Below are positions 15,962 to 36,216 of a stretch of DNA of 64,000 nucleotides, one piece after another. The stretch's first letter is position 1. The number at the start of each line of letters is the position of its first letter. The DNA comes from Tubulanus polymorphus. Taxonomy: Eukaryota; Animalia; Nemertea. Made by a program: the position numbers and the translations under genes. The stretch spans positions 10,324,451 through 10,388,450 of the forward strand of contig NC_134035.1 in assembly GCF_964204645.1 (NCBI RefSeq). The letters run 5' to 3'. The notes beneath the pieces are model-generated. The model saw only the letters and a program-made list of their open reading frames with translations, was not told the origin of the DNA and did not search any database.

Positions 15962-17347
15962 TTAAGATTGTAATGTCGATTTTAAGAATGTCAGCATCTT
16001 GTTCCACGAATTTTCCTGCGCCTTCGCATGAAGCATTTTCTCACCGCCGTAATCGAATACACTCTTAAACATCTTATGATAGCAATATCGAGTTAACGGG
16101 GTATGGGGTAATTCGAGTAGATGCCCGGCCCCAGGACACATGAGTAACTCATAGTTCTGACGACCGTGATTGCGGAGACGTTCGACTAAGTTGATCGTAC
16201 TTTGGGGATGACAGGTCAAATCGTATTGACCCGCGATAAGCAGAAATTTTGCTGTATCCGATTTTTCTATTTGAAGTAAAGAACCATTGTCTTTATCTAC
16301 ATCGCATTCGGGATAAATGAAGTGTTTGTAGCGGCGAGTATTTTCTTCGGTAATGGCGAAGTCTCTTGTAAAATCCATCGGAAAAAAGGGTTTAATTTGA
16401 CCGCCTATCGCAGTCGGCCATAGTAAAGAATGACTGAACGAGTTTATAGCGACAAGTGCTGTGATATATCTGCATACCTCAGTCATCATAATCCCAATTT
16501 CCGCTCCTTTTGACACACCAACCACTCCAATTCCATTGCGTGAATCAACATCCTGTTGCTCCCGAAGCCAATCGACAGCTTCTATGAAATAGTTCATATC
16601 CAGTTGATCAACTTTCGTAGGCAAATCTTCGTAGTCGAAATAAGCTAAGGCTAAACTCGCAATACCACGTGACGCCAGTAATGCGGATCTGTACTCGACG
16701 CAGCCTCCGCTTGTGCCAAACATATCAATAACAGCAGGAAATGGACCGGTACCAACCGGACGAAAAAACGTACCTCTGATTCTACCAGTGCGAATAACTG
16801 TGCGTTCGACATCTGCGGATTTGTACCATCTCTTTATATCGGCGTTTCCTAAAGGAATTAGGGAGGGTTTCTCGTTGAAGATGTCTTCATATGCCACATG
16901 ATCGGAGAACATTTTAAAATTGATATCTAACGGGGTCGCAACGTCCTTCTTCATGAAGCGGATACCAGGTCTTTGACCGGGTAGCGGTTCCATACCCCAG
17001 AGAAGTCCATGAGGATGGACACCAACATAGCTACCGCCTACAGATGGGTCTCTTGTCAAATCTAATGTTCCATCCGGTCCAGTCACGAAATAACTATATG
17101 CTCCGAATTTAAATCCACCTTCATGCATTTCTGAATACAGCGTCACATTTTCAAGTGGTTTGATATTATCAGCTTCGATTTTAAGGGATGCATCCACCAG
17201 GTCGTTATCAGGATTAACGCGCAGACGACAGTTTACTCCCTTTTCAGCGACATTGTGGTACAACCTCGAAACCAGGAATTTGTCCCTGAAATACTTCGCA
17301 GATAATCCGTGTCTATACGATGTGCATATTCTCACGGGTATCAGCAT
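15962..17347 (-). CDS. acyl-CoA thioesterase / BAAT family alpha-beta hydrolase, copy 1
   Basis: GGSYVGVHPHGLLWGM, RIRGTFFRP...GPFPAVIDMFG, RSALLASRG, GVSKG (Ser), GQYD (Asp), GAGHLLE (His); Arg-rich N-terminus resembling a mitochondrial presequence; single ORF. Confidence 0.93.
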   Translation of the reverse strand: MLIPVRICTSYRHGLSAKYFRDKFLVSRLYHNVAEKGVNCRLRVNPDNDLVDASLKIEADNIKPLENVTLYSEMHEGGFKFGAYSYFVTGPDGTLDLTRDPSVGGSYVGVHPHGLLWGMEPLPGQRPGIRFMKKDVATPLDINFKMFSDHVAYEDIFNEKPSLIPLGNADIKRWYKSADVERTVIRTGRIRGTFFRPVGTGPFPAVIDMFGTSGGCVEYRSALLASRGIASLALAYFDYEDLPTKVDQLDMNYFIEAVDWLREQQDVDSRNGIGVVGVSKGAEIGIMMTEVCRYITALVAINSFSHSLLWPTAIGGQIKPFFPMDFTRDFAITEENTRRYKHFIYPECDVDKDNGSLLQIEKSDTAKFLLIAGQYDLTCHPQSTINLVERLRNHGRQNYELLMCPGAGHLLELPHTPLTRYCYHKMFKSVFDYGGEKMLHAKAQENSWNKMLTFLKSTLQS

Positions 17348-18315
17348 TTTCACGTTAAATTTCGTAGTTTCTTTAGTCTCTTCTTAAAATCTGAATAAGA
17401 TTGATGGAATTTGCGTCTCAATTATTTTAAGGATAAGAAAATTTTTAGACGATTAGAAATAAACAAATGACCGCTTACCCTCATGAATTAGTGTATTAGA
17501 CGGCTTACCTCTTTAAATGAATCATTTACATTAGGTCTTGATATCTTTGAATAGAGTACATAGTGAATAACGATAAGAAATGTGAACAAGTTATATCTGT
17601 TATCGGTTGTTTATCAGCCCCAATTCGTTCAAGTTTATTCAAACTTTCATTTATCAATTCTATATTCCATTCATTTTTTTCTTTGCTTAGTGCGAGTGTT
17701 ATATAGTGTTTTTTAAGCTGAAAAAGATACATGTATTTCTGAAAATGTTTACATTCTGTGTTGCTCTGTGCGGTGAATATCTTACTCACTGGGATCGTTC
17801 ACCAGATCTCGACATTAGAGCGAAATAACTTGTACACACAAAAGTCCAAACATCTAAAACCATCATATTGAAACAATGTGATTCATTTTTACGGCGAGAT
17901 TTATCTAACGGAAAGTACATTTTTAACGATTTTACTAGTGACCTTCAGTGACTTGTTCTGCAGTTCATAAAGGAAATTCGGAAAGATATTTCATATACCA
18001 CAAAAACAAAATAATTCATTTAAAGCCTAGATTGGATAGTTCATTGTAACTCAAGATTTTATTATAGGGGTCCTCTCAGTTTGTATATCTTTCATTTTAG
18101 CTGGCCATGGCCTTCACAGTAGATCATGCTGCGCATGCGATACTTAATAATCCTTCGACGGACCAGTCATGCAGACCCTTTAGATTTGCAATATCAGTCA
18201 GTTTTGGAAAACTCTGTGTTCAAGCAAATGTCCGATTTTTCCTTAATTATGAAATGTATCTATCTACGATCACCTCATAATTAGTCCAGTATTTGTTTAT
18301 CGCCTTTGATAGACG

Positions 18316-19713
18316 TCATGATTGTAATGTCGATTTTAAGAATTTCAGCGTCTTGTTCCACGCATTTTCTTGAGCCTTTGCATGAAGCATTTTCTCCCCA
18401 CCAAAATCTGCTATGCTTCTAAGAAATTTCTGATAGCAAAATCGAACCAACGGGGCATGCGGTGGTTCGATCAGATGCCCGGCCCCAGGACACATGAGTA
18501 ACTCATAATTCTCACGACCGTGATTGCGGAGACGATTCATTAAGCTGAACGCACTTCGTGGATGACTCGACAAATCATACTGACCCACGATGAACAGAAA
18601 CGTTGCTGTATCTGATTGTTCAATTTGAATCAAAGAACGGTTATCATCCTCTACGTCATAGTCTGGGTAGATAATGTAGTTTTTGTAGCTGAAAATACAT
18701 CCCTCGGTGACTTTTAAGTCTTTCGCAAATTTTAGCTGTAATTCAGGTCTAATGTGACCGCCTATCGCAGTTGGCCAAAAAAGCGTGTGGGTAAATGGAT
18801 TTATAGCGACAACCGCCGTAATGTCGCTGCATACCTCAGTTATCATAAGCGCAATTTCTGCTCCTTTTGACACACCAACCACTGCGATTCCATTACGCGA
18901 ATCAACATCCTGTTGCTCCCGAAGCCAATCGACAGCTTCGATGAAATAGTTCATATCCAGTTGATCAACTTTCGTAGGCAAATCTTCGTAGTCGAAATAA
19001 GCTAAGGCTAAACTCGCAATACCACGTGACGCCAGTAATGCGGATCTGTGCTCGACGCAGCCTCCGTTGGTACCAAACATATCAATTACGGCTGGAAATG
19101 GACCGGTACCAACCGGACGAAAAAACGTACCTCTGATTCTACCAGTGCGAATAACTGTGCGTTCGACATCTGCGGATTTGTACCATCTCTTTATATCGGC
19201 GTTTCCTAAAGGAATTAGGGAGGGTTTCTCGTTAAGGATATCTTCAAATGTTACATGATCGGAGAACATTTTCAATTTGATATCTAACGGAGTCGTAACG
19301 TCCTTCTTCATGAAACGAATACCGAGTCTTTGACCGCGTAGCGGTTCCATACCCCAGAGAAGTCCATGAGGATGGACACCAACATAGCTACCACCTACAG
19401 ATGGGTCTCTTGTCAAATCTAATGTTCCATCCGGTCCGGTCACGAAATAACTATATGCACCGAATTTAAATCCACCTTCAAGCATTTCTGAATACAGCGT
19501 CACATTCTCAAGTGGTTTGATATTATCAGCTTCGATTTTAAGGGATGCATCCACCAGGTCGTTATCAGGAGTAACGCGCAAACGGCATTTCATTCCTCTT
19601 TCAGTGACATTGTGGTATAATTTTGAAAGTAAAGTTTGAAACTTCTTTCTGAAACTCTTCTCGAATAATTTGCGTCGAAACAATGCACACGTTCTACTCA
19701 CGGATAACAACAT
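18316..19713 (-). CDS. ACOT/BAAT family, copy 2
   Basis: Same motifs (GVSKG, GQYD, GAGHLIEPP); likely start MLLSVSR. Confidence 0.93.
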   Translation of the reverse strand: MLLSVSRTCALFRRKLFEKSFRKKFQTLLSKLYHNVTERGMKCRLRVTPDNDLVDASLKIEADNIKPLENVTLYSEMLEGGFKFGAYSYFVTGPDGTLDLTRDPSVGGSYVGVHPHGLLWGMEPLRGQRLGIRFMKKDVTTPLDIKLKMFSDHVTFEDILNEKPSLIPLGNADIKRWYKSADVERTVIRTGRIRGTFFRPVGTGPFPAVIDMFGTNGGCVEHRSALLASRGIASLALAYFDYEDLPTKVDQLDMNYFIEAVDWLREQQDVDSRNGIAVVGVSKGAEIALMITEVCSDITAVVAINPFTHTLFWPTAIGGHIRPELQLKFAKDLKVTEGCIFSYKNYIIYPDYDVEDDNRSLIQIEQSDTATFLFIVGQYDLSSHPRSAFSLMNRLRNHGRENYELLMCPGAGHLIEPPHAPLVRFCYQKFLRSIADFGGEKMLHAKAQENAWNKTLKFLKSTLQS

Positions 19714-20054
19714 TTTCACGTTAATTTCGCAATTTGTAGAATCCCTCCTATTCAATTATACATCTGAATAAAATGGAAATGGTTATTCAAGCATTTTGAG
19801 AATGAGAGCTTAAAACTATTACAAATCCATTTATCAGGACTTACCTCCTGCAATTATTTACATTAGGTCCTACAGAGTTCATTATGATACGAGAACTACG
19901 AAAACGAAGGCTTTTCAGGTTAGCTCTAATCGATTCTTTATCTTTCTACTGACATTTATTCAAACTTGCATATGAACATTTTGTATTCGATGTACATGTA
20001 TACCTTTTACGGTGTGAATTTTGTTCTGTTTTTTTTCTGGCTTTCATATGAGTT

Positions 20055-21410
20055 ATAGTTATAATGTGGATTTTAAGAATGTCAGCGTCTTGTCCGACGA
20101 ATTATCCTGAGCCTTTGCATGAAGCATTTTTTCACCGCCGCAGTCGAGACTATTTCCAGTGAACTTATGATAGCATTACCGAGTTAACGGGGCATGCGGT
20201 GGTTCGATCAGATTCCCGGCCCCAGAGCACACGAGTAATTCATAGTTCTGACGACTGATTGCGAAGGCGGTTGACTAAGTTGAACGCACTTCGGGGATGA
20301 CATAACAAATCGTATTGACCCACGATGAACAGAAAGTTTGCTGTATCTTATTTCTCAACTTGAATCAAAGAACGGTTATCCTCATCTACGTCACAGTCTG
20401 GGTAGATTGCCATATTTCTGTAACAGAAAGGGGTTTCTTCGGATGTGAAACGGCCTTTGGCTAATTCAATCTGGAAATTAGGTCTTATTTGCCAATGAAT
20501 AGCAGTTGGCCAAAAAAGAGAATGGATTTATAGCGACAACCGCCGTGATGTAGCTGCATACCTCAGTCATCATAATCGCAATTTCTGCTCCTTTTGACAC
20601 ACCAACCACACCAATTCCATTGTGCGAATCAACATCCTGTTTCTCTCGAAGCCAATCGACAGCTTCGATGAAATAGTTCATATCCAGTTGATCAACTTTC
20701 GAAGGCAAATCTTCGTAGTCGAAATAAGCTAAGGCTAAACTCGCAATACCACGTGACGCCAGTAATGCGGATCTGTGCTCGACGCAGCCTCCGTTGGTAC
20801 CAAACATATCAATTACGGCAGGAAATGGACCGGTACCAACCGGACGAAAAAACGTCCCCCGATTCTACCAGTGCGAATAATGAGCGTTCAACATCGGTGG
20901 ATTTGTACCATCTCTTTATATCGGCGTTTCCTAAAGGAATTAGGGAGGGTTTCTCGTTAAAGATATCTTCAAATGTTACATGATCGGAGAACATGTTCAA
21001 TTTGATATCTAACGGGGTCGTAACATCTTTTTCATAAAGCGGATACCAGGTCTTTGACCGGGTAGCGGTTCCATACCCCAGAGAAGTCCATGAGGATGGA
21101 CACCAACATAGCTACCACCTACAGATGGGTCTCTTCACAAATCTAATGTTCCATCCGGTCCGGTCACGAAATTACTATATGCAACGTATTCAAATCCACC
21201 TTCATGCGTTTCTGAATACAGTGTCACATTTTCAAGTGGTTTGATATTATCAGCTTCGATTTTAAGGGATGCATCAATCAGGAGTAACGCGCAGACAACA
21301 TTTCAACCATTTTTAGCGACACTGTGGTACAATCTCGAAACCAGGAACTTGCCCCTGACATACTTTCCGTATCTAAACGATCCACATATTCTCATGGGTA
21401 TCAGCAGTCT
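20055..21410 (-). pseudogene. ACOT/BAAT family pseudogene
   Basis: Colinear with the neighbouring copies but broken by several small deletions/frameshifts (fragment ORFs 20478-20807 and 20809-21000; deletion near the DNDLV codons at ~21278). Confidence 0.88.
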
Positions 21411-22444
21411 TTTCCTAAGATCTGAATAAGATTGATGAAAATGATAATTCAATGATTTGAAGTTGTGAGAAACGCTTATACATGTATATGTGACTATTAT
21501 TTATGAATCACCAAAATGACCCCCTACTCCCATGAATCAATGTATCACCATACATTTGTACTTGCTTTCACTTACTTTAAATGATTCTATGTCCCACTGA
21601 GTACAGTGTGATATTGAACAAGTTCTCTTATTGATTCTTTATCAGCACCAAGTTAATTTGAACCATTCTATCAATTTCATATTCGATTATCTATTTTCTC
21701 TTTGTAAACTATGAAAATTATATATGTACTAGCTGAAAAATATGTAGGCCTTCGTGTTTCTTAAAACGTTTAAGCTGCATTTCCCTGCCCGGCACGCCTT
21801 TCTAATCGCATTTTTAAAAACCTGAACTAGATGAAGTCTAACATTACTTCTACTATCAACCGTTTTACTACTACTACGTGTAGTACCGTTTTCCCGGCTT
21901 TTGAGCGGTGGTTGAGCGAAAGAAATCACATACGAACTATAAAAGGTGTCTTTCTTAAAACAGTATGAGTGTCAACTCAGATTTTAATCTGTATACTATA
22001 TATAGGACAGTAATTCATGGCTTTACAGTAAAGAACAGTATGAATTCAACGCTGTGGATTGTTGGTGACACAAATACCCCCGTGTTTTGAATCGCTCCAA
22101 CTGTAACATCGGAAAAACACTTCATATCTTTTATGGCGAGTTCTACTTTATGGAAAGTACAATTTCTTTAGAATTTTATGAGTGACTCTCAGTGACCTAC
22201 CTTATCCAATCAAGATGTATTGAAACGAAATCTTTTATTCCACATATACGTGTATAATCATTATCGAGGAATTGGAGCATTTATCGAAGAATATCAAAAC
22301 GAATGGGAATCTAACGCAATTTGTACACTGAATTGAATTTTTTTCAAAATTGGATAAACTTTCTGTGAGAAAACAAAAAACAACCAAAGACTTTATTCGT
22401 ACGTGTAGTTCTACACTTTATAGCGCGAAACAGTACAATGTACG

Positions 22445-23848
22445 TTATCTAGTTTCTTTTTCGTTTCGTAATTTCGATTTTAAAAATTTCAGCATTCTAT
22501 TCCACGAATTTTCCTGAGCTTTAGCATGAAGCGTTTTTTCACCCCCATAGTCGACTACATTTCCTAAGAACTTAAAATAGCAATATCGAGTGACGGGGGT
22601 ATGTGGTAGTTCTAGAAGATGTCCGGCCCCAGGACACATGAGTAACTCATAGTTCTGACGACCGTGTTTGCGGAGACGTTTCACTAAGTTGAACGAACTT
22701 TTGGGATGATATATTAAATCGTATTGACCCACGATAAGCAGAAAGTTTGCTGTATCGGATTTCTCGACTTGAATCAAAGAACGGTTATCATCATCTACGT
22801 CACAGTCTGGGTAGATAGCGTTATTTTTGTAGCAGAAAGGGCTTCCCTCGGTGAAGTCTTTCGCCAATTTTATCGGGTTACCAGGTCTAATGTGACCGCC
22901 TATCAAAGTCGGCCAAAAGAGCGTGTGGGTAAATGGATTTATAGCGACAACCGCCGTAATGTCGCTGCATACCTCAGTCATCATAAGCGCAATTTCTGCT
23001 CCTTTCGACAGACCAACCACTCCGATTCCATTGCGTGAATCAACATCCTGTTGCTCCTGGAGCCAATCGACAGCTTCGATGAAATAGTTCATATCCAGTT
23101 GATCAACTTTCGAATGCAAATCTTCGTAGTCGAAATAAGCTAAGGCTAAACTCGCAATACCACGTGATGCCAGTAATGCGGATCTGTGCTCGACGCAGCC
23201 TCCGTTGGTACCATAGATATCAATTGCGGCAGGAAATGGACCGGTACCAACCGGACGAAAAAACGTACCTCTGATTCTACCAGTGCGAATAACTGTGCGT
23301 TCGACATTTGCGGATTTGTACCATCTCTTTATATCGGCGTTTCCTAAAGGAATTAGGGAGGGTTTCTCGTTGAAGATGTCTTCATATGCCACATGATCGG
23401 AGAACATTTTAAAATTGATATCTAACGGGGTCGTAACGTCCTTCTTCATGAAGCGGATACCAGGTCTTTGACCGGGTAGCGGTTCCATACCCCAGAGAAG
23501 TCCGTGAGGATGGACACCAACATAGCTACCACCTACAGATGGGTCTCTTGTCAAATCTAATGTTCCATCCGGTCCGGTCACGAAATAACTATATGCACCG
23601 AATTTAAATCCACCTTCATGCATTTCTGAATACAGCGTCACATTCTCAAGTGGTTTGATATTATCAGCTTCGATTTTAAGGGATGCATCAATCAGATCAT
23701 TATCAGGAGTAACGCGCAGACGACGTTTCACTGCTTTTTCAGCGACATTGTGATACAATCTGAAAACTGATAACATCTCTCTGATACATGTATACTTCCC
23801 AGATAATCCGAGTTGAAACGATGCACATATTCTGACGGGTATCAGCAT
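22445..23848 (-). CDS. ACOT/BAAT family, copy 3
   Basis: GLSKG, GQYD, GAGH; start MLIPVR chosen by homology to copy 1 (the longer ORF-track extension is probably 5' UTR/intron). Confidence 0.92.
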   Translation of the reverse strand: MLIPVRICASFQLGLSGKYTCIREMLSVFRLYHNVAEKAVKRRLRVTPDNDLIDASLKIEADNIKPLENVTLYSEMHEGGFKFGAYSYFVTGPDGTLDLTRDPSVGGSYVGVHPHGLLWGMEPLPGQRPGIRFMKKDVTTPLDINFKMFSDHVAYEDIFNEKPSLIPLGNADIKRWYKSANVERTVIRTGRIRGTFFRPVGTGPFPAAIDIYGTNGGCVEHRSALLASRGIASLALAYFDYEDLHSKVDQLDMNYFIEAVDWLQEQQDVDSRNGIGVVGLSKGAEIALMMTEVCSDITAVVAINPFTHTLFWPTLIGGHIRPGNPIKLAKDFTEGSPFCYKNNAIYPDCDVDDDNRSLIQVEKSDTANFLLIVGQYDLIYHPKSSFNLVKRLRKHGRQNYELLMCPGAGHLLELPHTPVTRYCYFKFLGNVVDYGGEKTLHAKAQENSWNRMLKFLKSKLRNEKETR

Positions 23849-24822
23849 TTTACACGTTGAATTTCGTAGTTTCTTCAGTCTCTTCGAAAAATCTGAATAA
23901 GATTGGTGGAAATGGCGTCTCAATATTCTGAAGACGTGAGAAACGCTTAAAACTATTTTACAAATCACCGAAATGATCTCTCGACCTCTGTATCGTTTAC
24001 CTCCTTTGAATTGATCATTGATTATTATCATGATTAAGTATCGGCGAGTATAGAGTGAAATGAACAAATTATATCTCATCGATTCAGCATTAATTTGGTC
24101 AAGTTTATTCGAATTAGTATCTATCAATTTTGAGTTCTACTATGTATATTTTTAATAAGCATGTATGAACATTATATGTTTACGAGCTAAACAAAAGATG
24201 GCAATTTCTAAGAATGTTTGTACATGATACATGATACATTTATCTGAACAGCAACCATCTGGATTTGTTTACCTGAACGAGATGGTTAAGTGACATCTAC
24301 AATCCAAAGTTTTACTAGATCTAATTCCGATGTCCTGACTACTGAGCGGTTGAGCGAGAGAAATCACGAACGACGAGAGACGCGACTTTCACCTTGGAAT
24401 AATTGTGAAATGATAACCACAAGCTTTTACTTTGAACTATAAACTGCATGAATGTCAACTCCGATTTGTTCAGTACTTTATATATGCGACACGTTTCGTG
24501 GCAGGACAGTTTATTCATGGCTTTTGAACTCAGTAAAGAACATTATTAGTGACTTTCAACGCTGCGGTTTGCCCCATGTGACATGTGAATCGCGACAACA
24601 TCGGAAACAATGCTTTCCATCTTTGCGACGAGTTCTCATCTCGTCGAAAGAAACATTTTCTTTGCGATTTGATGAGTGACATTAGTGACTTGCTTTGCCT
24701 TTCATCAAGAGAAATCAAAAGAGATTTAGCCGACATAATTATTAAGCCAGATAAGATTCGTTAGTTTTTTACTACAATATATGATACAGACAATTAATTT
24801 CTTTTCATGCAGTTTGAGTGTG

Positions 24823-25286
24823 AGTAATAGGGGTAATGGGCTTTCATACCAAAGGTCGAACGGTCGAGCTCGTAAAAAATGAAAAACATAAAAATAATAA
24901 CAATTTCTACTTGAATTACTCGCGAAACTCATAAAAATGAAAAATAAATTCTCACACGCTCGAATTTATTTTTCATTTTATGAGTTTCACTCCTAATTCA
25001 AGTAGAAATTGTAATTATTTTTATGTTTTTCATTTTTACTCACCCGCCCGTTCAACCTTTGATATGAAAGCCCATTACCCCTATTACTCTTAAAATATTC
25101 ATATATATATATGAATAACATTTAAATCATTGAACTTCTAAAATCAATTTAAATAAAAAATATAGTATTAAAATGGAAGCAAATAAGTACTACTGCCCAA
25201 CATGTAATATCGATATAGATAAATCCCAAAAAGCAAGACACAATAAAACTAGAACACATTTAGAGAATAAATTGAAACTAGAATAT
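24823..25286 (+). repeat. left terminal inverted repeat (~464 bp); first 266 bp form an imperfect hairpin
   Basis: Reverse complement of 42331-42792 apart from one AT unit; 24823-25088 is self-complementary around a loop at ~24952-24961. Confidence 0.95.
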
Positions 25287-25424
25287 TTACAGTTATATTC
25301 AGAACAGTTAACAAAGGGAAAGAAATTTATTGAATTATGGAATAATGATCCAAACAATGAACAATACGTTGAGGAATTTATTATCAAGGAATCGAAAGAA
25401 CTTATCAAAAGCAGCGAGGAATGA
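25173..25424 (+). CDS. 83-aa chimeric ORF: pPolB N-terminal zinc finger (duplicated by the TIR) fused to a short tail
   Basis: First 38 aa identical to the pPolB N-terminus; tail LQLYSEQLTKGKKFIELWN resembles the HNH ORF tail LQLYLDQLDKAKTFVELWN. Confidence 0.6.
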   Translation: MEANKYYCPTCNIDIDKSQKARHNKTRTHLENKLKLEYLQLYSEQLTKGKKFIELWNNDPNNEQYVEEFIIKESKELIKSSEE

Positions 25425-25503
25425 AAAAGGATGACGTTGGTCGAAGAAATGGAAGAGGATTCTAAAATTATTAACCAATTTAGTAAAAAAATACGTATAA
25501 TAA

Positions 25504-26172
25504 ATGGAACCAGAACAACCACAAATTATCAATATTACAAATAACACTGGCGTTATAAACATATACTACAAGAAGTGTTCTAAATGTGAATTAGATAAAT
25601 TAGCTTTAACAGAATTTAGTAAGCGTAAGATTAGCAAAGATGGTTTTCAATATTGCTGTAAAACTTGTTTTAAACTATATACCAAACAATACCGAGAAGA
25701 TAATAGAGAAGCTTACAATGATTATATGACAGAATATATGAGAGAAAGATATCAAACAGATCTTAATTTTAGATTGAAACAATGCTTAAGGACTAGATTA
25801 ACACAATTATTCAACAAAGAAACACATTCAGAAACACTATCTAATCTATTGGGTTGTTCAGATGAATTTCTCAAATCATGGATAATATATCAATTCGATG
25901 ATAAAATGAATATAGATAATTATGGTGAATACTTTCATATTGATCACGTGTTGCCGATTTCTAAATTTGACATGAATGATGAATACAATAAAAAACTTAT
26001 TTGGAACTGGAGAAATTTAAGGCCTTTAGAAAAGAAAGAAAATATAATTAAATCCAATAAACTAGATTTACAGTTATATTTAGATCAACTAGATAAAGCA
26101 AAGACATTTGTTGAATTATGGAATAGTATTTCACAGAATCAACCGCATTCTGAGGTTTTGATCAGTGGTTAG
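25504..26172 (+). CDS. HNH/endonuclease VII-like nuclease with an N-terminal Cys4 zinc ribbon (giant-virus/phage type)
   Basis: KKCSKC...DG...CCKTC; LLGCS...FHIDHVLP...NLRPLEKKENIIKSNK. Confidence 0.75.
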   Translation: MEPEQPQIINITNNTGVINIYYKKCSKCELDKLALTEFSKRKISKDGFQYCCKTCFKLYTKQYREDNREAYNDYMTEYMRERYQTDLNFRLKQCLRTRLTQLFNKETHSETLSNLLGCSDEFLKSWIIYQFDDKMNIDNYGEYFHIDHVLPISKFDMNDEYNKKLIWNWRNLRPLEKKENIIKSNKLDLQLYLDQLDKAKTFVELWNSISQNQPHSEVLISG

Positions 26173-26520
26173 AAAGCTGGCAATTCTATTTGAGCTTTGT
26201 ATGTATATAATACATAGCTTTTGCTTACTACTAAAACATATGTTGCCAAATATATCTTGTTTTCAATTCTAAAGAATTAATTAACTTCATCATAAAGAAC
26301 ATCTGTGCAGAAATAATTAGTTTGGTCGAACGTGCGCCACGTCGGCAGTTAGAAATCAACTTTCACATACATGGTACGTATTGGATATTCTCTCTCAAAA
26401 CACAGTTTACAGTTCTAAATCTAAATGTAAGTACCGTTTTTTGTAGTTATTATGAAGTAGGGAAACCTTTAAACAAATTTAAGTATAGTAATTCATTTTC
26501 ACGACATCTTTTAGATTAAA

Positions 26521-26978
26521 ATGGAATACAGAGATCAACCAGAAATTCTAAGCCAACCAACGGATGAGGAACGATTGCTACTGGATAGTGAAACTCAGGA
26601 ATCAATAGAAATGGAGGATGAAACTCTCGTAATTGACGAACAAACTTCACAAACATTACAAGAACATTTGGACTATCATCAAGAAATGGTGAAATACATA
26701 ATAGTGATGTAATACATAATAAACAATTACCGCGCGAACTACAATTACCAAAATTACCAGCAACGCGACTCAAATTGCTGTTGGGACTCAAAGAATCGAA
26801 AACTAAGAAAATGAGTGGAGATATCAGTGCCGGTTTTGAAACAAAACTGAGAAGAGTAGGAAGATTAATAAAATATGAAAAATTCAAAATATTAGGATTA
26901 GCATTTAGTGAAGTAGTGAGATATTTACCAGAAATTGAAGAAATGATTGTAAACAATCCAGTAATTAAAGAATTCTGA
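26521..26978 (+). CDS. hypothetical Polinton ORF(s), possibly one frameshifted gene
   Basis: Acidic 63-aa ORF starting at TAAAATG, overlapped by an open frame that ends at 26978. Confidence 0.35.
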
Positions 26979-27054
26979 ACAAAATTATAAATTATAACAC
27001 TGAAGGTCTTTGTAATATAGATATCAAAAAATGTTGTATATATCTGTTTTAATA

Positions 27055-27412
27055 TTGTATTGTTTACTGTTAACTAAGTATTGCGTAATAACCGGTCCGA
27101 TTGAACCGCATTTCTATTGTTCTCCATTGTGCTATTATTGATCGTTGTTAATGGCGGCGGTTGTTCTGTATTGATTGTTTACTGTTAACTAAGTATTGCG
27201 TAATAACCGGTCCGATTGAACCGCATTTCTATTGTTCTCCATTGTTCTACTATTGATCGTTGTTGACTGAAACAGCTGCTCAATATTGATTGGTTACAGT
27301 TCTATGTTTGAATGTTGTAGTTTACAGAATAAAAATATAACTGTGTATTGCGCAATAACCGGTCCGATTGGACCGCATTTCTATTGTTCTCCATTGTTCT
27401 ATTATCGATCGC
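27055..27412. repeat. three direct repeats in the Polinton non-coding region
   Basis: GTATTGCG(T/C)AATAACCGGTCCGATTG(A/G)ACCGCATTTCTATTGTTCTCCATTGT at ~27078, 27193 and 27345. Confidence 0.85.
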
Positions 27413-27840
27413 TAAAATTTACATAATAAATATATGTGTTTATGAAATAATATTTCCACCAGTCGTTTCTTTGAATTTATTTTCAGTTTTAGGATTTATT
27501 ATCGAGAATCCGAAATGACTTATCTGGACAGTTATAGTTACTGCTCCTAATAGATGGTGCCATAAACAGCACCCACACAGTGATAGACAATAGTAGTGAG
27601 ATATCAAATAGAATTTAAATAAAATATAATAAAAAAACAATAACTTCAACTAGCTAGTGAATTCTATTATATTTTTAATATTTTCTTTTCAAAAAGAGAA
27701 TACTTTATATTTTGAATAGATTCAAATATAAATTCTTTAACTTTAACTAACCTAGTCAATTTAGTATTAACCTAAAGAGATACTAGTATCATTTGAAGAA
27801 TACTTATAATATTTTTTTTTGCTTTTTTCCTCTAATATAA

Positions 27841-28443
27841 ATGTCAAAGAAATCTAATAAGAATAGTATTGATATCGAAAAAACATTAGATGATTTGGGT
27901 ATAAGTGATAATAAAGATACAGTTGTAACTAATTCTATTCAAGTTAATAACAATATAGATTATGAATACTATTTATATTGTAAGCATCATCTAGAACTAT
28001 TGATTGCCGGTGGAAAAACTAAAGAGTTTATTGGTAAAACAATAACTTTTCAAGAATTAGATAATATGAACAAAGAAAAAGTAATCAAATATTTTAAGAT
28101 TTATGAAGAGTCAAGATTAGCTAGAATAAATGATTCTATTTCTAATGGTATTGTCAAATGTTATTCTAAGTTATGTAACCAGTTAATACCAATTGATGAT
28201 GAAAATAAATTATATAATGATTTGAAAAATGACTATTTAGTTATGACTGAATTACAAAAATGGGTTGGATATGCTTCATTTCAATTAGGATCGGTTATGA
28301 CATTGATTTCTACTGGAGTTATAACATTTTCGAACATCAAGCCTATGGAATATAAATCAGGTAAGAACGAAACAGATGTACTACAACCAAACGTCGAAAC
28401 AGAAAATGAATCAGAACAAAAATTAACTAAAATAAATGAGTGA
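27841..28443 (+). CDS. hypothetical Polinton protein (200 aa)
   Basis: Intact ORF, TAAATG start, overlaps the next ORF; hydrophobic segment near the C-terminus. Confidence 0.7.
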   Translation: MSKKSNKNSIDIEKTLDDLGISDNKDTVVTNSIQVNNNIDYEYYLYCKHHLELLIAGGKTKEFIGKTITFQELDNMNKEKVIKYFKIYEESRLARINDSISNGIVKCYSKLCNQLIPIDDENKLYNDLKNDYLVMTELQKWVGYASFQLGSVMTLISTGVITFSNIKPMEYKSGKNETDVLQPNVETENESEQKLTKINE

Positions 28444-28822
28444 TGGAGTTAAGAAAAAGGCTAGATCCGAGAAACAAATTAAATGGGCAAGAGAATTAGG
28501 TAAAAGATCTTCAGAATTAAAAAAAGCTAAGAAAAAGAAATTAACTGATATAAATGAATCACCTGATGATGCCGTACGGCACCCACACGGTGGTATTGAT
28601 TCAAATAATAATCCATCTAATTCTTCTAATGCTGGAAGTAATTATAAATTATATATTACAATTGGATTAGTAACAGTTATTATATTATCCGGTGTAATAT
28701 ATAAATCAAAATTCAAATCTGACGATAAAGATGATCGGAAACTTAGTTATCCGTGTACAGACAATAAACCACCAGAAAATAAATCAAATGAAAATAAATC
28801 TAAAATATTATTAATGGATTAA
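28436..28822 (+). CDS. basic single-TM protein (128 aa)
   Basis: Lys/Arg-rich N-terminus; TM segment LYITIGLVTVIILSGVIY. Confidence 0.65.
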   Translation: MSDGVKKKARSEKQIKWARELGKRSSELKKAKKKKLTDINESPDDAVRHPHGGIDSNNNPSNSSNAGSNYKLYITIGLVTVIILSGVIYKSKFKSDDKDDRKLSYPCTDNKPPENKSNENKSKILLMD

Positions 28823-28825
28823 AAT

Positions 28826-29914
28826 ATGATGAAAAAAGAACAATATTTAAGAGATTTATATTATAACCCAGAAAGTGAAGTATCATTTTCTAACGTTTCA
28901 GAATTATGGAATAAAATTAAATCTGATAATAGCAATATAAAATATAGTGAATTAAAATCATGGTTACAAAATCAACCCACATATCAAATTCATAAAAAGA
29001 TGGATAAAAAATATTTAACAAGAAAAGTAATGGTTTCATATATTGACCAACAATGGCAAGCTGATTTAATTGACATGAAAAACTTAGAAGAATATAACAA
29101 AGGATATTTTTGGATACTGAATGTTATAGATATATTCAGTAGATACGCATGGAGTATCCCGATTAAAAATAAAACTGGTATAGAAGTTACAAATTCTTTC
29201 AAATTAATATTTAAAGAAGCTATCCCAGATAAAATACAATTTGATGAAGGTAAGGAATTTTATAACAAACATCTTAAAAAACTATTATCTGATAACGATG
29301 TAGAATATTTTTCAACACATTCAGATAAAAAAGCATCTGTTATAGAAAGATTTAATAAAACATTGAAAACTAGAATGTGGAAATATTTCACCGCTAATGA
29401 AACATATAAATATATCAATGTGTTAGATGATTTAGTTAAAGGTTATAATAATTCTAAACATAGTTCTATAAATATGAAACCTATACAAGCTAGAAAAGAA
29501 GAAAATTCAGAAATAGTTTGGAATAATTTATATGGAGCATTTGTTACACATGATTTTGGAGAACCTAAATTTAAAATAGGACAATATGTTAGAATTTCTA
29601 AATATAGAAAAACATTTTATAAAGGTTATACCCCTAATTTTACAGAAGAAATATTCAAGATTAAAAAGATAATATTAACTAAACCATTTGTTTATAAATT
29701 GTTTGATTTAAAAGATGAAGAAATATTAGGTTATTTCTATGAACAAGAATTATCATTAGTACCAAATCCAGATGAAATAGAATACAAAATAGAAAAGGTA
29801 TTGAAAACAAAAACTCTTAAAGGAAAAAAGTATTCTTTGGTGAAATATAAAGGATATGATGATAAATTTAATGAATGGATTTTATCTAGTAAAATTAAAA
29901 GAATAAATGAATAA
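28826..29914 (+). CDS. retroviral-like (rve) integrase with a C-terminal chromodomain
   Basis: DDE motifs WQADLIDM, IDIFSRYAW, QFDEGKEF, ASVIERFNKTLK; chromo-like YKIEKVLK...YSLVKYKGYDDKFNEWI. Confidence 0.95.
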   Translation: MMKKEQYLRDLYYNPESEVSFSNVSELWNKIKSDNSNIKYSELKSWLQNQPTYQIHKKMDKKYLTRKVMVSYIDQQWQADLIDMKNLEEYNKGYFWILNVIDIFSRYAWSIPIKNKTGIEVTNSFKLIFKEAIPDKIQFDEGKEFYNKHLKKLLSDNDVEYFSTHSDKKASVIERFNKTLKTRMWKYFTANETYKYINVLDDLVKGYNNSKHSSINMKPIQARKEENSEIVWNNLYGAFVTHDFGEPKFKIGQYVRISKYRKTFYKGYTPNFTEEIFKIKKIILTKPFVYKLFDLKDEEILGYFYEQELSLVPNPDEIEYKIEKVLKTKTLKGKKYSLVKYKGYDDKFNEWILSSKIKRINE

Positions 29915-30521
29915 AGATTTATTTATATTTGAACCACATAATATGTTAGTTACTGGAGTTACAAATTGTGGTAAAACACACTTCATATTATATTTATTAG
30001 AAACTATTTATAAGAATCATTTTGATAATATAATATTATTCTGCCCAACTTATGAAATGAATGAAACGTATAATAGAGATATAGTTTTTAAAGATAAAAA
30101 GTTTATTATATTAAATTCTAAAACAGTGAAAGATAATTTGGATAATTGTATAAAAATTGCATTAGATATTTATAAAGGATCAAATACATTATTTATTATT
30201 GATGATTGCGCAAATTTACATGATTCTAAAATTAGAGAAAGTGAGTTATGTTATTTAGCTTTCTCTGGTAGACATTTTGGGATAACAACATGGGTTTTAA
30301 ATCAGAAATATAATTCAATTGTGAAAGATTTTAGAGAGAATATAAGATTTCTAGTTTTATTCTACAACAAAGATAGAAAATCTATGCAACAATCATTAGA
30401 AGAAAATCAAATTATACCTACTGAATTACATGATGAATATATGAATAAATTAAAAAATAATAAAGGTTCAAAATTATTACTGAGATTACAATTTCCATAT
30501 GAATATAAATTTATAAAATAA
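29907..30521 (+). CDS. A32-like (FtsK/HerA) genome packaging ATPase
   Basis: Walker A GVTNCGKT, Walker B LFIIDD, GRH motif, LNQ. Confidence 0.9.
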   Translation: MNKDLFIFEPHNMLVTGVTNCGKTHFILYLLETIYKNHFDNIILFCPTYEMNETYNRDIVFKDKKFIILNSKTVKDNLDNCIKIALDIYKGSNTLFIIDDCANLHDSKIRESELCYLAFSGRHFGITTWVLNQKYNSIVKDFRENIRFLVLFYNKDRKSMQQSLEENQIIPTELHDEYMNKLKNNKGSKLLLRLQFPYEYKFIK

Positions 30522-30534
30522 CTATTTGTATACC

Positions 30535-30620
30535 TATGTATTAGATACCCTAATACCTAATACCCCATTAGATACCCTAATACCTGATACCCTAATACCT
30601 GATACCCTATTAGATACCTT
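30535..30620. repeat. short GATACCCTAATACCT-type tandem repeat between convergent genes
   Basis: About ten ATACC(C/T) units. Confidence 0.7.
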
Positions 30621-30675
30621 AAATAATTAAAACCCTTTTTTATTTACTATTATTTTATACAATTTTCAACCTTTA

Positions 30676-31659
30676 TTATTCGAGTGTTAGATAATTACTT
30701 TCTGAATCACTTTCACTATCAGACCCTAACAACATATTTAAATGCTCTACCGAATCTACATCAACATCTTTATAATTTTTTTTCACCTTTTTCGCCTTTT
30801 TTACCACACCACCAATAGTTGTTTCATTATAACGCTTATTCATCCTTTCTATTATATCATCAATAGTTTCTTCTTTATGTTTCATAGAATCTGTATTATC
30901 AATATGTTTATCTGTAACTATATCATCATGTGGGCGTATGGCGGCACCATTTTCATTATCATCTTTATTAGTGTTTGCTCCTAATATTTCATTTACAGTG
31001 TTTGATCCTAATATTTCATTAGCATCGGTTAAATCTAATTCATCGTTATTAGGTGTTGCTAATAATAAATCTTTATATAATTCTTTACCATTTACTTTTT
31101 TATTTGAAACAAATTTTGTAACATATCTAAATGGGTGTTCTATAAATTCTTTTTTACCAACACGTTCTATAACATTAGTAATATGTGAATTTGTATTCAT
31201 ATGTTTATTCCAATTTGATGGAGCGTTTGAAAATTCACCATTACAATAACCACAATAATTTCTATTTTCACTAACATCTAATATTATTGAATTAATATAT
31301 GTAGAAGGTATTACGTTATTAGATGTAGAAGGTATTACAGATGTAGTAGTAGGTATAACATTATTAGATGTAGTAGGTATTACAGATATAGTAGTAGGTA
31401 TTACAGATGTAGTAGGTATTACAGATGTAGTAGTAGGTATTACAGATGTAGTAGTAGGTATTACAGATGTAGTAGGTATTACATTATTATCAATTACACC
31501 ACTTTTATTATTATCGATTTCTATCAGTTTAGTTTTATAATTTTTAAAAATAGGATCAAATATCAAAGCTATATTACAAGGTATTACATAATATAAACCA
31601 TCATTATTTTCATGTGTATCGATGTATGGAATATGTTTATATACTTTACCTCCTTCCAT
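30676..31659 (-). CDS. 327-aa protein with VIPTT(T)S repeats and a C2H2 (matrin/U1-like) finger
   Basis: Repeat at ~31300-31490; CGYC...WNKHMNTNSH; acidic/basic tail. Confidence 0.7.
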   Translation of the reverse strand: MEGGKVYKHIPYIDTHENNDGLYYVIPCNIALIFDPIFKNYKTKLIEIDNNKSGVIDNNVIPTTSVIPTTTSVIPTTTSVIPTTSVIPTTISVIPTTSNNVIPTTTSVIPSTSNNVIPSTYINSIILDVSENRNYCGYCNGEFSNAPSNWNKHMNTNSHITNVIERVGKKEFIEHPFRYVTKFVSNKKVNGKELYKDLLLATPNNDELDLTDANEILGSNTVNEILGANTNKDDNENGAAIRPHDDIVTDKHIDNTDSMKHKEETIDDIIERMNKRYNETTIGGVVKKAKKVKKNYKDVDVDSVEHLNMLLGSDSESDSESNYLTLE

Positions 31660-31691
31660 TTATATAATAAATATTTATTAAAGTTAAAATT

Positions 31692-32939
31692 TTAATACAT
31701 AACACTATCTAATTGAGAATTTACAATATTTAATTGCGCATCAGATAATATATAAATGTGCATTTTAAAATTTTTGATTCCCTTTTTCTTTGTCATGAAT
31801 AATTGTATTCCATCTTTTGTATTTTGTAGTTTTTTCCCAGAACCATGTAATAAGTTATCTTCAGTTGTTCTAAAATCTAACCATAATGCATATTTATTAC
31901 CGGTATAATAATCAATTTGATTAATGTTACAATCTTCAGATGATTTTACTTTTTCATTCATAAAATGTTTTTTAATTTCTACCCATTGATCTATCATTCT
32001 CATTCCTTGACAAAATATTTTATTCGCTATACCTTCGATAGTTATTTCTACTTTTGTTATTTCAGGATTATAATAATTGTCAACATTTATTGCGCCATTA
32101 GTATACGTTCCAATGGTAAAAAATATTAATATACCTTTAATAGATCTTCTTGGGAAGTTAATATTCTCATTAATAATTTCATCATTTGCATTAATAGTTA
32201 CAGTTTTAAATTTATCAATATAATCATATAATAATGATAATCCTTGATTGTATTGAGTTTGAATTATACTTGAAATATTTTCATCAGTTACTGTATCATA
32301 TTCTAAACATATATTCAATAATTTATAACTCATATCTTTATTAACGCTAGATAATACAATTTCATTTACAGGAGCAAATGTTATCTCAAATATAATATCT
32401 TCTTGAATTGAGTATTTATATAAAGGCGCATTATTATTTATCAATTCAAAGTCTAATGGAATTTTATATTTACTTCCATATATACTTTTTATCAATTTAT
32501 CTACATCATTTGTTAATATTGCGCTATTGGCTTCTGATCTTAATTTATTTTGGTTTTCTGATTGGATGCCTTGAAATATCATATCATTTCTATTTTCTTT
32601 AGTTAACCATAAATCTTTATAATGCATAAATAAATTATAATCATCTAATGAGAAAACTGTTTCTGGACCAATCTTTATTGTTAACTTTTTAATCAAATAT
32701 CTTCCAACATTATCAACGACATAATTATTATTATTACCGATTACTTTTATATCGGCTGATAAATAAATACTATTTGGAACGTAAAAAGTATTTTGTGTTA
32801 ATCGAGGGATTCTAACGTATAAAGTTTCATCGGGATTAATATTTGAAGGGTTATGAGTAATTATATGATGTGATCTTTCTGCTTTAATAGCATTAGATAT
32901 TCTATGATTCTTAGAAGGATTGATATAACTCCCACTCAT
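31692..32939 (-). CDS. major capsid protein (double jelly-roll)
   Basis: 415 aa; NPSNINPDETLYVRIP, LLNICLEYD, FPRRSIKGILIFF, YYNPEITKVEITIEG, YALWLDFRT...LHGSG, typical of Polinton-type MCPs; gene context supports the call. Confidence 0.8.
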   Translation of the reverse strand: MSGSYINPSKNHRISNAIKAERSHHIITHNPSNINPDETLYVRIPRLTQNTFYVPNSIYLSADIKVIGNNNNYVVDNVGRYLIKKLTIKIGPETVFSLDDYNLFMHYKDLWLTKENRNDMIFQGIQSENQNKLRSEANSAILTNDVDKLIKSIYGSKYKIPLDFELINNNAPLYKYSIQEDIIFEITFAPVNEIVLSSVNKDMSYKLLNICLEYDTVTDENISSIIQTQYNQGLSLLYDYIDKFKTVTINANDEIINENINFPRRSIKGILIFFTIGTYTNGAINVDNYYNPEITKVEITIEGIANKIFCQGMRMIDQWVEIKKHFMNEKVKSSEDCNINQIDYYTGNKYALWLDFRTTEDNLLHGSGKKLQNTKDGIQLFMTKKKGIKNFKMHIYILSDAQLNIVNSQLDSVMY

Positions 32940-32980
32940 TTATTTAACAAAAAAATTAATTATTTATTTTTGATCATGGT

Positions 32981-34442
32981 TTACTTGATATTTTTTGATA
33001 TCATATTTACTAAACCAAAAATAATAGCACTTACAACTGTAATTAAAAATAAAATAATATGTTCAGCAGCAAAGTTAATAATGTTTCCTGCAGATTTCAA
33101 TATAAAACCAACAATTGAAGCAATAACTCCTGGCAATGCTGCAGCAGATTTTTTAGATAGTTCCCATAAATATTTTGCTAATTTCTTTAAACCATCTTTA
33201 ACTTTATCTTGTATAGAATTATTGCCTGGAGGTTTATCTGGTTTATTTGGAGTAGGAGTAAATTTTAAAGCATTTGATATTGCTAAACCAATTGTTGTAA
33301 ATACTATAGTTACAGCTGTTACAATTGAAAGAATTGTTATACCTTCTAATTTAAATAATAATCTTATTCTGTCTTTTAATGATATTCCAGAATTTGGTTT
33401 TATTAGATATCTTTTAAAAACATCTTTTAATCTTTTAAAATTATTACCAAATTCTTTTAATAATATATCTCTTTCACCTTTTTCGTACTTCTAAATTATC
33501 TTTTAAATTATCAATTTCTTTTTCTAAACGTAATTCTTTTTGTCTATACTCTATTTCATCAATTACTTGTCGTTCTAAATCAGACTTTAGTTGTTCTTCT
33601 TCTTCAATTGCATTAGTTAATTCTTTTTCCAAATACATAATTTTTTGATCTCTTATACTTTTATTATGTGCAATTTTATCAGCTTCATTTCTTATACTAA
33701 TAATTTCTCTAATTGCTTCATCAGAAAATATATCTAAATCTTCTAATTGTTGATCTGTTGCATCAAGTAATCCATTCGGTAAAAGTTTTTCAGTTTGAAC
33801 TTCGTTTGATTTAATTTTACTAGTTTTGGAAGTTTTATTCTGTTCAGAAGTTGTTTCTGTTTTTGAATTATTTTTGATTGTTTCAAATAATTCATTAATT
33901 CTTTGTTTAAATACTCTTTCATTTTTAATAATTTCTTCTTGTGTTACATTTTCTATTTCATTACTATTTCTTATTCTTTTAATTCTAGATAGGTCTAACT
34001 TAAGCAAAGTTGATTCTTTTAATATTTTGTTTTGTTTTTTATAAGAGATATCAATATAATAATCACCAGTCAAATGATAATAATATTCACCATCTAAAAA
34101 TTCTAAATTTTGCGCTAAAATTCTGGCGTCTCTAAAATTTATATTATATTCAGATCTTTCAAATATATGTTGTAATCTAAGCGCTTGGTTTATATTTTCT
34201 AAATCTTGTCTTATTAAATATGGATTTTCATTTTCAGGATTTATTCTCGATCTAGTTCTTCTATCAAATTCATCTGTTGATGGGACTTTAGAACCACTAT
34301 CTGCTAAATTAGAATTATATGTTGTATCATTATCATTATCAATATTAGTATCAGCAGTCATATAATCATCATTGTTAGTATTGGCATCATCATTATTTCC
34401 CATGTTTTCCATTTCATAATCTTCTCCACCTTCTACATCCAT
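32981..34442 (-). pseudogene. coiled-coil plus multi-TM membrane protein, frameshifted at ~33480
   Basis: The 322-aa ORF ends EVRKR* at CGAAAAAGGTGA. Removing one A gives KGERDILL...LFKLEGITILSIVTAV...KSAAALPGVIASIVGFIL...ILFLITVVSAIIFGLV* ending at 32981. Confidence 0.75.
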
Positions 34443-34458
34443 TTACATAATAAAAAAA

Positions 34459-35759
34459 TCAAAATTTAAAATATAATATTCCTCCGATTACAATTCCTAT
34501 ACAAGTTATAGCTAATTTAGTATTTTCATGGGATTTATTATCATCATTTAGTTTAATTATATCATGTTGAATTTTATCAGTTCTATTATTTTCTGATGTA
34601 TTGTAATCTTTTATTTTAGAATCATTATCCAATTTAACATTCTTAGTTTTAGTTTCTGTTGATTGAATATGTTTTTATTTTTTTCACCTTCCATTAATTT
34701 TGGAGCACTAATAATCTTTTTATTTATATCATTTAATCCAAATGAATTATTTATTGTTGCAGTTTTAATTAGATTATTATAACCAATTATATTTCCCATC
34801 TTTAATACTAAATCATTAGAAATAATTAATAGATTAGGGCCTATACAATAATTTAGTCTTACATGAGATTTATCTAAATAATTTTGATATCTTATAATGT
34901 TTTCTGGAATCGATCTATTTTTATCATTATGAATTGAATATTCAAATAAAACTTTAAACTGTTTCTGCGCATCGAATGAAGTGTTATCATTTCCAATTAT
35001 TGGGGATCTTGTTTCAACTTGAGCGCCCAAAATACATATCAAATAAATTCTAATAGATTGATTTATTCTTTGTATACCTGATTTTGTAAAACCTTCACCA
35101 TTTTCTAAAATGAAATTAACCCAACCATTATTATTATCAATTTTATAATTATGATAAGCTGAAATTCTATGCATATAATCAATTCTTTTTATTTCATATT
35201 CTTCACCAACACCTTGCAATTTACCATGCGCTCTAAAATCGGAATTAATATTTATATTAAATTCATTACATATTTTATAAAACTTGGATATATTAATATT
35301 ATTATCCAATTCTTTAAAATATTTAGACCCGGGTAAAGGACATTCTAATTCATTTAATATTATTCTGATTTGAAAATATGTGTGAAATCTAAATATTGTG
35401 TGAATTAATTTTAAATCAGAAAACTTCAAATTTTTATCTAAGTTATTTAAATGATCATTCCAACTAATTCCACATCCTGTTGTTGCACAATAAACAGCAA
35501 AATTTAATTGATTCTGTCAATATTTCATATTAGATTTTACTTTATATATATGATATTCATCTCGAGTAAAAGTAACTTCATATGTATTAAATATATTTTC
35601 CATTTTAGAAATAAAAAACTGTGATTCATTAACATAAATTTCTAAATTAGTTAATGAATTTAAAACTATATTTTTATATGTAATATTTTTCTTAAAATCT
35701 ATTGCCGGAATATTATATTTAATTGATTTATTATATTGGAAAGCTTTTGGAAACCCCAT
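34459..35759 (-). pseudogene. Polinton protein with C-terminal TM anchor; one in-frame TGA and one frameshift
   Basis: MGFPKAF...NMKY[TGA]QNQLNFAVYCATTGCGIS runs in frame into ORF 34611-35429. After an A-run near 34680, another frame continues to HENTKLAITCIGIVIGGILYFKF* at 34459. Confidence 0.75.
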
Positions 35760-35775
35760 TTATATAACTAAAAAA

Positions 35776-36216
35776 TTAATAATTTATTAATTCTTTTAAT
35801 AATTTATCTTGTTCTTCAACTGTTATATGACCATTTAAACTTATTATATAATCTAGTGTGTTCTTTAATTTATTTATTTCTTTTATATTAGATTTTATTT
35901 TTTCTTTATTACTTTTTATATTTAATTTTGAACTTATACCAGTTAAAACACTTGAACTTAATCCTAACACACCAATTGATATAGCTAAAGGTGTTAATGG
36001 GCTGAATATTGCTAAAAATGTTATTACAGAACTAATTGTAACCGAACCACTTATAATAAAATAATATATAATTTTACTTTTTAAATATTTTTTCTTTAAT
36101 ATATATATCTTTAAGTCACTTTCAAATTCTAATATTTGTTTTTCTAAATATGTTTTTGATTTAGTTTTATTTATATCATGAGGAATAATATCAATACTAT
36201 CAACTTTATCTTCCAT
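35776..36216 (-). CDS. two-TM protein (146 aa), SLATT-like topology
   Basis: Helix, two hydrophobic segments, then coiled coil; TAAATG start. Confidence 0.6.
   Translation of the reverse strand: MEDKVDSIDIIPHDINKTKSKTYLEKQILEFESDLKIYILKKKYLKSKIIYYFIISGSVTISSVITFLAIFSPLTPLAISIGVLGLSSSVLTGISSKLNIKSNKEKIKSNIKEINKLKNTLDYIISLNGHITVEEQDKLLKELINY

Follow-up and report, generated by a model that had tools for sequence, protein, structure and literature searches.

The closest described relatives of the element reported here are the Polintons (Mavericks) of the pPolB2-like group, which in the available passages measure 18 kb, carry TIRs with AG...CT ends and are flanked by a 6-bp TSD (PMC8097293; bioRxiv 10.1101/2023.08.22.554363). 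They encode an RVE integrase, an A32 ATPase and a protein-primed PolB (pPolB) with a terminal protein (TP), a vOTU and an inserted nuclease domain; the TP is described as a little-finger/PAD fold whose linking Ser/Tyr comes after the second helix and before the last strand, and the vOTU is the next domain (bioRxiv 10.1101/2024.03.18.585575). Polinton virions have not been observed (PMC8097293), and the family described here bears on the excision, replication and possible helper need of animal Polintons. Terminal palindromes with hairpin priming are already partly in print for protist virophages and PLVs. In endogenous virophages of Halocafeteria seosinensis and in PLV subtype 4, palindromes lie within the TIR beside the TSD and have been proposed to prime replication as hairpins; in these protist elements the palindromes (52 nt in subtype 5) occur preferentially with replicases other than pPolB, and the supplementary tables of that study may list pPolB-bearing cases (bioRxiv 10.64898/2026.07.28.741278). 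Among the papers listed in our literature searches, judged by title and abstract and with subscription papers mostly outside the scope, none describes terminal hairpins of animal Polintons. The accessible text of PMC8097293 has 0 occurrences of 'palindrom', and that of the nematode Polinton paper has 0 of both 'hairpin' and 'palindrom'.

Several other replicons invite comparison. Poxviruses and ASFV end in incompletely paired hairpins whose structure is kept more than their sequence, as far as described in PMC8956199, and the poxvirus late initiator is TAAATG with an upstream T-run (PMC11980589). The inverted repeats of PLVs have been linked to entomopoxvirus termini in a source whose available part does not mention promoters (PMC11296320). 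In parvovirus hairpins the palindrome begins at base 1, the 3' end is flush and there are bubbles; some parvovirus termini occur in one orientation only (PMC8242256). Streptomyces telomeres combine a terminal protein with folded 3' single-stranded palindromes that show stem compensation (bioRxiv 10.1101/2025.10.14.682034). The yeast pGKL virus-like elements are pPolB/terminal-protein replicons with a poxvirus-like TAAAN initiator (PMC6211774). Further related literature includes PMC12220804, PMC11788076, bioRxiv 10.1101/2022.07.28.501842 and 10.64898/2026.10.13.758929.

In the 64-kb window (the whole stretch of DNA analysed, 64,000 nucleotides), a Polinton spans 24823-42792 (17,970 bp) between two copies of the 6-bp TSD AGTGTG at 24817-24822 and 42793-42798. 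Like the elements of the pPolB2-like group it has AG...CT ends and TIRs (left, 464 bp, 24823-25286, forward strand; right, 462 bp, 42331-42792, reverse strand), which are identical except for a 2-nt microsatellite indel. The left TIR repeats the first 38 pPolB codons, which, together with the near-identity, indicates that the left end was copied from the right one. A small AT palindrome lies at 25093-25114 and 42503-42522, directly inside the base of the hairpin described below, and the sole difference between the TIRs falls within it. The pPolB gene itself (38413-42444, reverse strand) is broken by stop codons in this copy, leaving ORFs 39427-42444 and 38413-39243, and encodes zinc fingers, a terminal-protein-like domain, a vOTU and an endonuclease VII insertion (aa 586-634); the N-terminal TP and vOTU are predictions with a weak fold E-value and invariant residues. 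Also present are an RVE integrase with a chromodomain (28826-29914, forward; Pfam rve E 2.3e-8, Chromo E 8.5e-5) and an A32-type packaging ATPase (29907-30521, forward; Pfam Pox_A32 E 7.5e-12). A 222-aa nuclease of the HNH/endonuclease VII family is encoded at 25504-26172 (forward; phrog_1035 E 1.9e-16), and a probable major capsid protein with 767 homologs at 31692-32939 (reverse). The ATPase, nuclease and capsid genes all start at TAAATG. For the capsid candidate, 4 of 23 alignment members have a weak Pfam Capsid_N match (E 0.002) and a PDB search gave no match. A 113-aa protein (38043-38384, reverse) is a possible single-strand binding protein as a lead only, its nearest Pfam-bearing Atlas cluster being Phi29_Phage_SSB (score 0.84) and two further searches having given no confirmation of the label. 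An adenovirus-type maturation protease matched neither in Pfam nor in a six-frame motif scan of the element, and may be absent, diverged or decayed. No HUH Rep/NS1 was found among 16 element ORFs with Pfam or 14 with PHROGs, and no RNA polymerase gene was recognised in the element. The interval 26172-27841 holds 1.7 kb devoid of long ATG-started ORFs, with a 115-bp tandem duplication at 27051-27301, and a second broken element gene lies at 34611-35800, a 187-aa ORF being its downstream part.

Only the outer part of each TIR is palindromic. The left 266 nt (24823-25088, forward strand) fold back from base 1 into 128-nt arms (outer arm 24823-24950, inner arm 24961-25088) joined by a 10-nt loop (24951-24960), with a folding energy of -99.5 kcal/mol and z of -23.9; none of 200 dinucleotide shuffles was equally stable. 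The right hairpin (42527-42792, reverse strand) is its exact reverse complement and folds at -110.3 kcal/mol on the forward strand. Indeed, in a sliding scan of the 64 kb with 266-nt windows, the two element ends were the two most stable positions. In the alignment of the two arms of the left hairpin, 114 positions match, 12 mismatch and 4 columns hold gaps; the outermost 26 bp pair perfectly. The initial annotation, which had proposed a 266-bp fold-back at both ends, was therefore right about the structure, and the terminal hairpin is a genuine, conserved feature. It fared less well on two details: the hairpin, described as AT-rich, has an AT content of 68.4%, below the 75.5% of the whole element, and the presence of the same mismatches at both termini, read as a sign that they are maintained, is uninformative on selection because the whole TIR has been copied from end to end. 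Within the outer arm, at 24866-24945 on the forward strand, an internal module occurs twice, consisting of CTC followed by a run of A that TG interrupts; the CTC of the first copy sits inside a mismatch bubble. The motif AAAA[A/T]TGA occurs three times per hairpin, which accounts for 6 of its 12 occurrences in the element. The hairpin has AGT...ACT ends of its own, and aligned as direct repeats the two element ends are identical at 232 of 268 positions. From the Polintons known from the available descriptions, the window element differs in that the outer 266 bp of its TIR are palindromic and its genes start at TAAATG.

The hairpin is a family-wide feature of this genome. We sampled about 12% of a sequencing run from the same species (X7) and found depths of 30 for the host, 809 for the element interior, which corresponds to an element copy number of approximately 27, and 1524 for the TIR. 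The summed depth at mid-arm was 3053, against 3049 expected if every end carried a hairpin and there were zero solo copies; full hairpin depth is thus seen over the approximately 27 copies. The outermost 50 bp were in excess (5187 versus 3049 expected), and matching this excess there are reads whose agreement with the window sequence stops after 24879 or 24898, as would be expected from sub-families sharing the tip alone. Read variants included loss of one internal module at the partner arm positions 24874-24933 and 24976-25033, between which read mapping is ambiguous, and loss of the apex (24924-24988), and about half of the inner-arm reads differed from the window copy at 25044 and 25061-25064. 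These variants indicate that the hairpin structure is common to the family but that its length and some of its mismatches vary. In the same run, 674 reads had loose ends before 25382, marking another left-end variant or a repeat that joins there. The small shares in runs X5 and X6 were set aside as evidence on habitat.

To place the hairpin among relatives, 112 loci were fetched by pPolB alignment (80 + 9 + 23), most of which lack an element end; the end could be placed, by eye or by TIR, in six (L001, L004, L005, L023, L068 and L108). Four of these six, a non-random sample, carry an end hairpin. At 73% pPolB identity, L004 has a 257-nt end hairpin (z -13.9), while the sequence of L001 (74%) begins within the hairpin and shows the apex and inner arm only (z -2.4). 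L108 (32%) has a 129-nt end hairpin (z -10.3), a second copy of which is absent from its genome, and in L068 (33%) each end folds into a hairpin of about 110 nt (z -8.2 and -5.2); the hairpins of both loci are unrelated in sequence to the window hairpin. No hairpin is present in L005 (57%; z -0.8), which has the outer-arm motif, an open pPolB frame of 1336 codons and TAAATG starts, nor in the distant relative L023, whose TIR is plain (z +0.75). L082 has a TIR, its true end not being placed. In a FastTree phylogeny of 74 pPolB segments (78 passed the length filter and 4 identical ones were dropped), the window element clusters with L001, L003 and L004 at 0.99, with L005 and then L006 outside them; L068 and L108 lie far from this clade. 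Homologs of the 222-aa nuclease occur in L001, L002 and L004, and in L001 and L004 the gene for the 113-aa protein separates the terminal hairpin from pPolB.

Between the window hairpin and that of L004, 73 aligned positions are paired in both, of which 19 have changed on both arms; a further 13 positions pair in one hairpin only and 5 in neither, among the latter a shared C-A mismatch at position 27. With its family-wide occurrence, the compensating changes in L004 and the recurrence of end hairpins in distant Polintons, the palindrome is not a one-off inversion. In L006, a 354-nt imperfect palindrome (664-1017, z -5.2), flanked by a short direct repeat and with no host DNA, lies between a homolog of a 200-aa gene of the window and pPolB, both genes reading away from it; judged from its layout, it is possibly the end-to-end junction of a circle or concatemer, or else an internal palindrome. 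Some other candidates were set aside. Weak AGT...ACT palindromes in L009, L025, L105 and at window position 35441 are at the level of shuffled sequence, in which two passes produced 4, or about 2 each, and the hairpins of L044 and L045 are not at the pPolB-proximal end, that of L044 interrupting the pPolB gene and perhaps being an assembly fold-back. Among viral_contigs, neither the terminal motif of 19 nt nor a degenerate end motif of 23 letters had a match, queries with pPolB, capsid (single and aligned) and integrase gave no confirmed relative, and the pPolB alignment gave the 9 distant loci. The L068 element itself (7044-14451) is 7.4 kb long and has pPolB and integrase. Its two end hairpins share one orientation, its TSD is probably 6 bp, and at 15545-15647, 1.1 kb outside the element, there is a third related hairpin.

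With regard to replication, the N-terminus models of pPolB match the little-finger/PAD domain of Y-family polymerases with Foldseek probabilities of 0.99-1.0, matches that are weak by E-value (5e-3 to 1.5e-2, none at 0.001). The predicted priming residue, Ser241, occupies the place described for the linking residue of the Polinton TP, in a GSG loop that follows the second helix and precedes the last strand, and both Ser241 and the vOTU residues D304, C307 and H405 are invariant in an alignment of 20 sequences. Because the predicted TP serine and the vOTU catalytic residues are kept, protein priming is likely still the way in which replication begins, and its replacement is unlikely. We do not count the endonuclease VII insertion as evidence of a hairpin-specific resolvase, since the motif is found in 8 of 8 pPolBs checked, whether or not a hairpin is present.

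A second line of evidence comes from the gene starts. TAAATG stands at 12 of the 18 element ORFs of at least 100 aa, versus 57 of 706 element ATGs overall (p 9e-10), and at 0 of 11 host ORFs of at least 150 aa. The 12 starts lie within 25504-38384, and 11 of them have T at -9, plus a T-run. Six ORFs lack TAAATG: besides pPolB and the integrase, there are two gene fragments and two antisense frames among them. Among the close relatives L001, L002, L004 and L005, 11 of 12 ORFs start in this way, as do all three visible genes of L006, which has 44% GC. Enrichment is partial in L058 (6/11), L093 (5/17) and L023 (3/13), and distant loci that are equally AT-rich have few or none (L018 0/14, L087 1/10). 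Outside the clade, hairpin and TAAATG are not coupled (L068 0/14, L108 1/5). The context is that of the poxvirus late initiator, and at the level of sequence it suggests transcription by a cytoplasmic pox-like RNA polymerase, in which case a helper virus factory would be the site of its replication. A helper-type promoter motif at gene starts, as in virophage-like satellites, is thus present, which lends independent support to the link with a helper virus raised in the initial annotation. The occurrence of TAAATG at 12 of 18 ORFs of an animal Polinton is, as a sequence observation, new here; among the papers listed on the subject, judged by listing or passages, none dealt with Polinton promoters.

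We consider it likely that the hairpin is a working end structure of a protein-primed genome, whose genes may be transcribed by the machinery of a pox-like helper. Our preferred account in its full form is tentative: the genome would be protein-primed, and the 3' ends of its displaced strands would fold to a local duplex that is copied with a single polarity, the probable site being a pox-like helper's factory. Folding on the displaced single strand would provide a built-in duplex end, namely a local panhandle with a base-paired 3'-OH, and no pairing with the far end some 17 kb off would be needed. The hairpin would be copied in one fixed orientation, with no flip-flop; its mismatch bubbles and A-run/TG modules might be read by proteins of the element or the helper, and trimming and re-copying against the inner arm could keep the outermost 26 bp perfect. 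Replication would take place in the helper virus factory, with transcription by the pox-like RNA polymerase. Displaced-strand folding, helper dependence and any role of a nuclease are inferences. The account as a whole is favoured by the retained TP and vOTU residues, the compensated positions in L004, the shared polarity of the arms and the strand bias of G-T wobbles (see below), the approximately 27 copies at full depth and the TAAATG starts. Against this account, L005 lacks the hairpin while having an open pPolB frame and TAAATG starts, so the hairpin may be dispensable; the flush paired 3'-OH is a ready primer, pointing to self-priming; the L006 palindrome is as expected of an end-to-end junction or a flip/flop mixture; the wobble bias is reversed in L068; hairpin and TAAATG go separately outside the clade; and arm-to-arm copying can yield covariation of the arms in the absence of selection. 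A combination of this kind has a parallel in Streptomyces, where terminal protein and folded 3' palindromes act jointly, with the differences that the palindromes there are several and short, the origin is internal, and the ends are patched by Tap/Tpg, proteins unrelated to those of the element (bioRxiv 10.1101/2025.10.14.682034). The pGKL elements share the protein-primed polymerase and the pox-like initiator, but come with an RNA polymerase of their own and lack both capsid and integrase (PMC6211774). Unlike the Halocafeteria elements, with which they share a palindrome within the TIR and next to the TSD, this animal Polinton and its relative L004 have hairpins of 257-266 nt that are imperfect and covarying, with a pPolB that keeps the predicted priming residues; terminal palindromes are therefore not confined to elements lacking pPolB, contrary to the trend in the available part of bioRxiv 10.64898/2026.07.28.741278.

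A fold-back telomere of the poxvirus or parvovirus type is possible but doubtful. Here the 3' arm would self-prime, or recombination between the ends would excise a circle carrying one palindromic junction, and dimers or cruciforms would be resolved into flip and flop by a nuclease, either the endonuclease VII-like domains of the element or a helper resolvase. Much of the structure would fit: the palindrome starts at base 1 and leaves the 3'-OH flush, as in parvoviruses, the agreement of the ends as direct repeats would allow excision, the element has two endonuclease VII/HNH domains, L006 resembles a junction, pox-type late initiators are present, and such a model has already been proposed for protist elements in the study cited above. 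The kept TP and vOTU residues stand against it, as do the endonuclease VII motif in pPolBs with and without hairpins, the lack of an HUH Rep among the 16 ORFs scanned and the flanking short direct repeat of the L006 palindrome, which may be internal. T6-N7-9-YA3W is the poxvirus concatemer resolution pattern; it has 0 matches in the hairpin, and none was seen by eye in the adjoining TIR, so a strict concatemer resolution sequence in the hairpin is not supported. The incompletely paired ends and the late initiator are shared with poxviruses, yet the element shows neither a strict concatemer resolution sequence nor an A22-type resolvase, its hairpin is not AT-rich relative to its genome (compare PMC8956199), and it integrates open and fully duplex. 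From parvoviruses it differs in having an HNH nuclease in place of HUH Rep/NS1, and a pPolB and integrase of its own.

Free flip-flop should also leave its mark on arm orientation. The same arm type is outermost at both ends of the window element and in L004, and also in L001 and L005, where polarity is read from one arm each (the inner arm and the outer motif, respectively); both ends of L068 agree with each other. Under free flip-flop such agreement would arise by chance with a probability of about 0.03-0.125, from few ends, and the cross-species polarity leans against flip/flop as far as the aligned ends allow. Fixed polarity is compatible with rolling-hairpin replication, since some bocavirus termini occur in one form only (PMC8242256). 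Mismatches that could form G-T wobbles are likewise uneven, with 10 on the strand bearing the 3' end and 0 on the other (window, L004 and L108), a bias that is reversed in L068 (2 versus 0). Asymmetric resolution is known from the left end of MVM. In the X7 reads, 2108 had host-type loose ends before 24823 (agreement 0.34), and none of the six X7 loose-end positions listed, the smallest with 444 reads and with 468 further rows over four runs beyond the listing, was at 25088, where a 50:50 mixture would by a rough estimate give about 400; at this level the reads are compatible with either state.

It is also conceivable, if unlikely, that the hairpin is a functionless palindrome, produced by one copy-back event of the strand-displacing pPolB and kept up by arm-to-arm and end-to-end copying. 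The lack of a hairpin in L005 and L023, the scatter of unrelated hairpins over the pPolB tree (L068, L108) and the many length variants in the reads, including module or apex loss, would all agree with a by-product. Long palindromes are unstable DNA, yet depth shows that this one is retained over the approximately 27 copies, and its structure, its polarity and one mismatch position have outlasted about 27% protein divergence. Rather unlikely, too, is the more far-reaching proposal that the clade is a satellite of a pox-like virus of marine invertebrates, transcribed by its helper from TAAATG late promoters, excised by recombination between the palindromic ends and with mismatched telomeres resolved by an endonuclease VII-type nuclease; if true, it would be an animal virophage that combines protein priming with hairpin telomeres. 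Finally, a separately mobile mini-element captured at Polinton termini, as the initial annotation had suggested from the hairpin's own AG...CT ends, is highly improbable: the AGT...ACT termini, the excess of the outermost 50 bp and the third hairpin outside the L068 element would suit it, but the window holds the two terminal copies only and no solo copy, mid-arm depth as expected makes full-length solo copies rare at most, and the tip excess is matched by the reads diverging after 24879 or 24898.

That this family joins hairpin ends with pox-type gene starts and kept priming residues makes its replication mode and helper dependence directly testable, and approximately 27 copies in one animal species make such tests cheap. 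Lastly, we note the surroundings of the element. Eight BAAT/acyl-CoA thioesterase genes without introns, arranged in tandem (15800-24100 and 42800-54300), surround the Polinton, and one of them gives a 100% match to a protein of the ribbon worm Tubulanus polymorphus. The host DNA of the window also contains fold-back or MITE-like elements of its own at 1035-1160 / 54674-54765, 3080-3180, 3779-3922 and 56619-58810, a set that includes one 497-bp inverted repeat pair, and tandem arrays with periods of 30, 42, 216 and 237 bp at 7439-8338, 11280-11644, 12205-13038 and 62732-64000.
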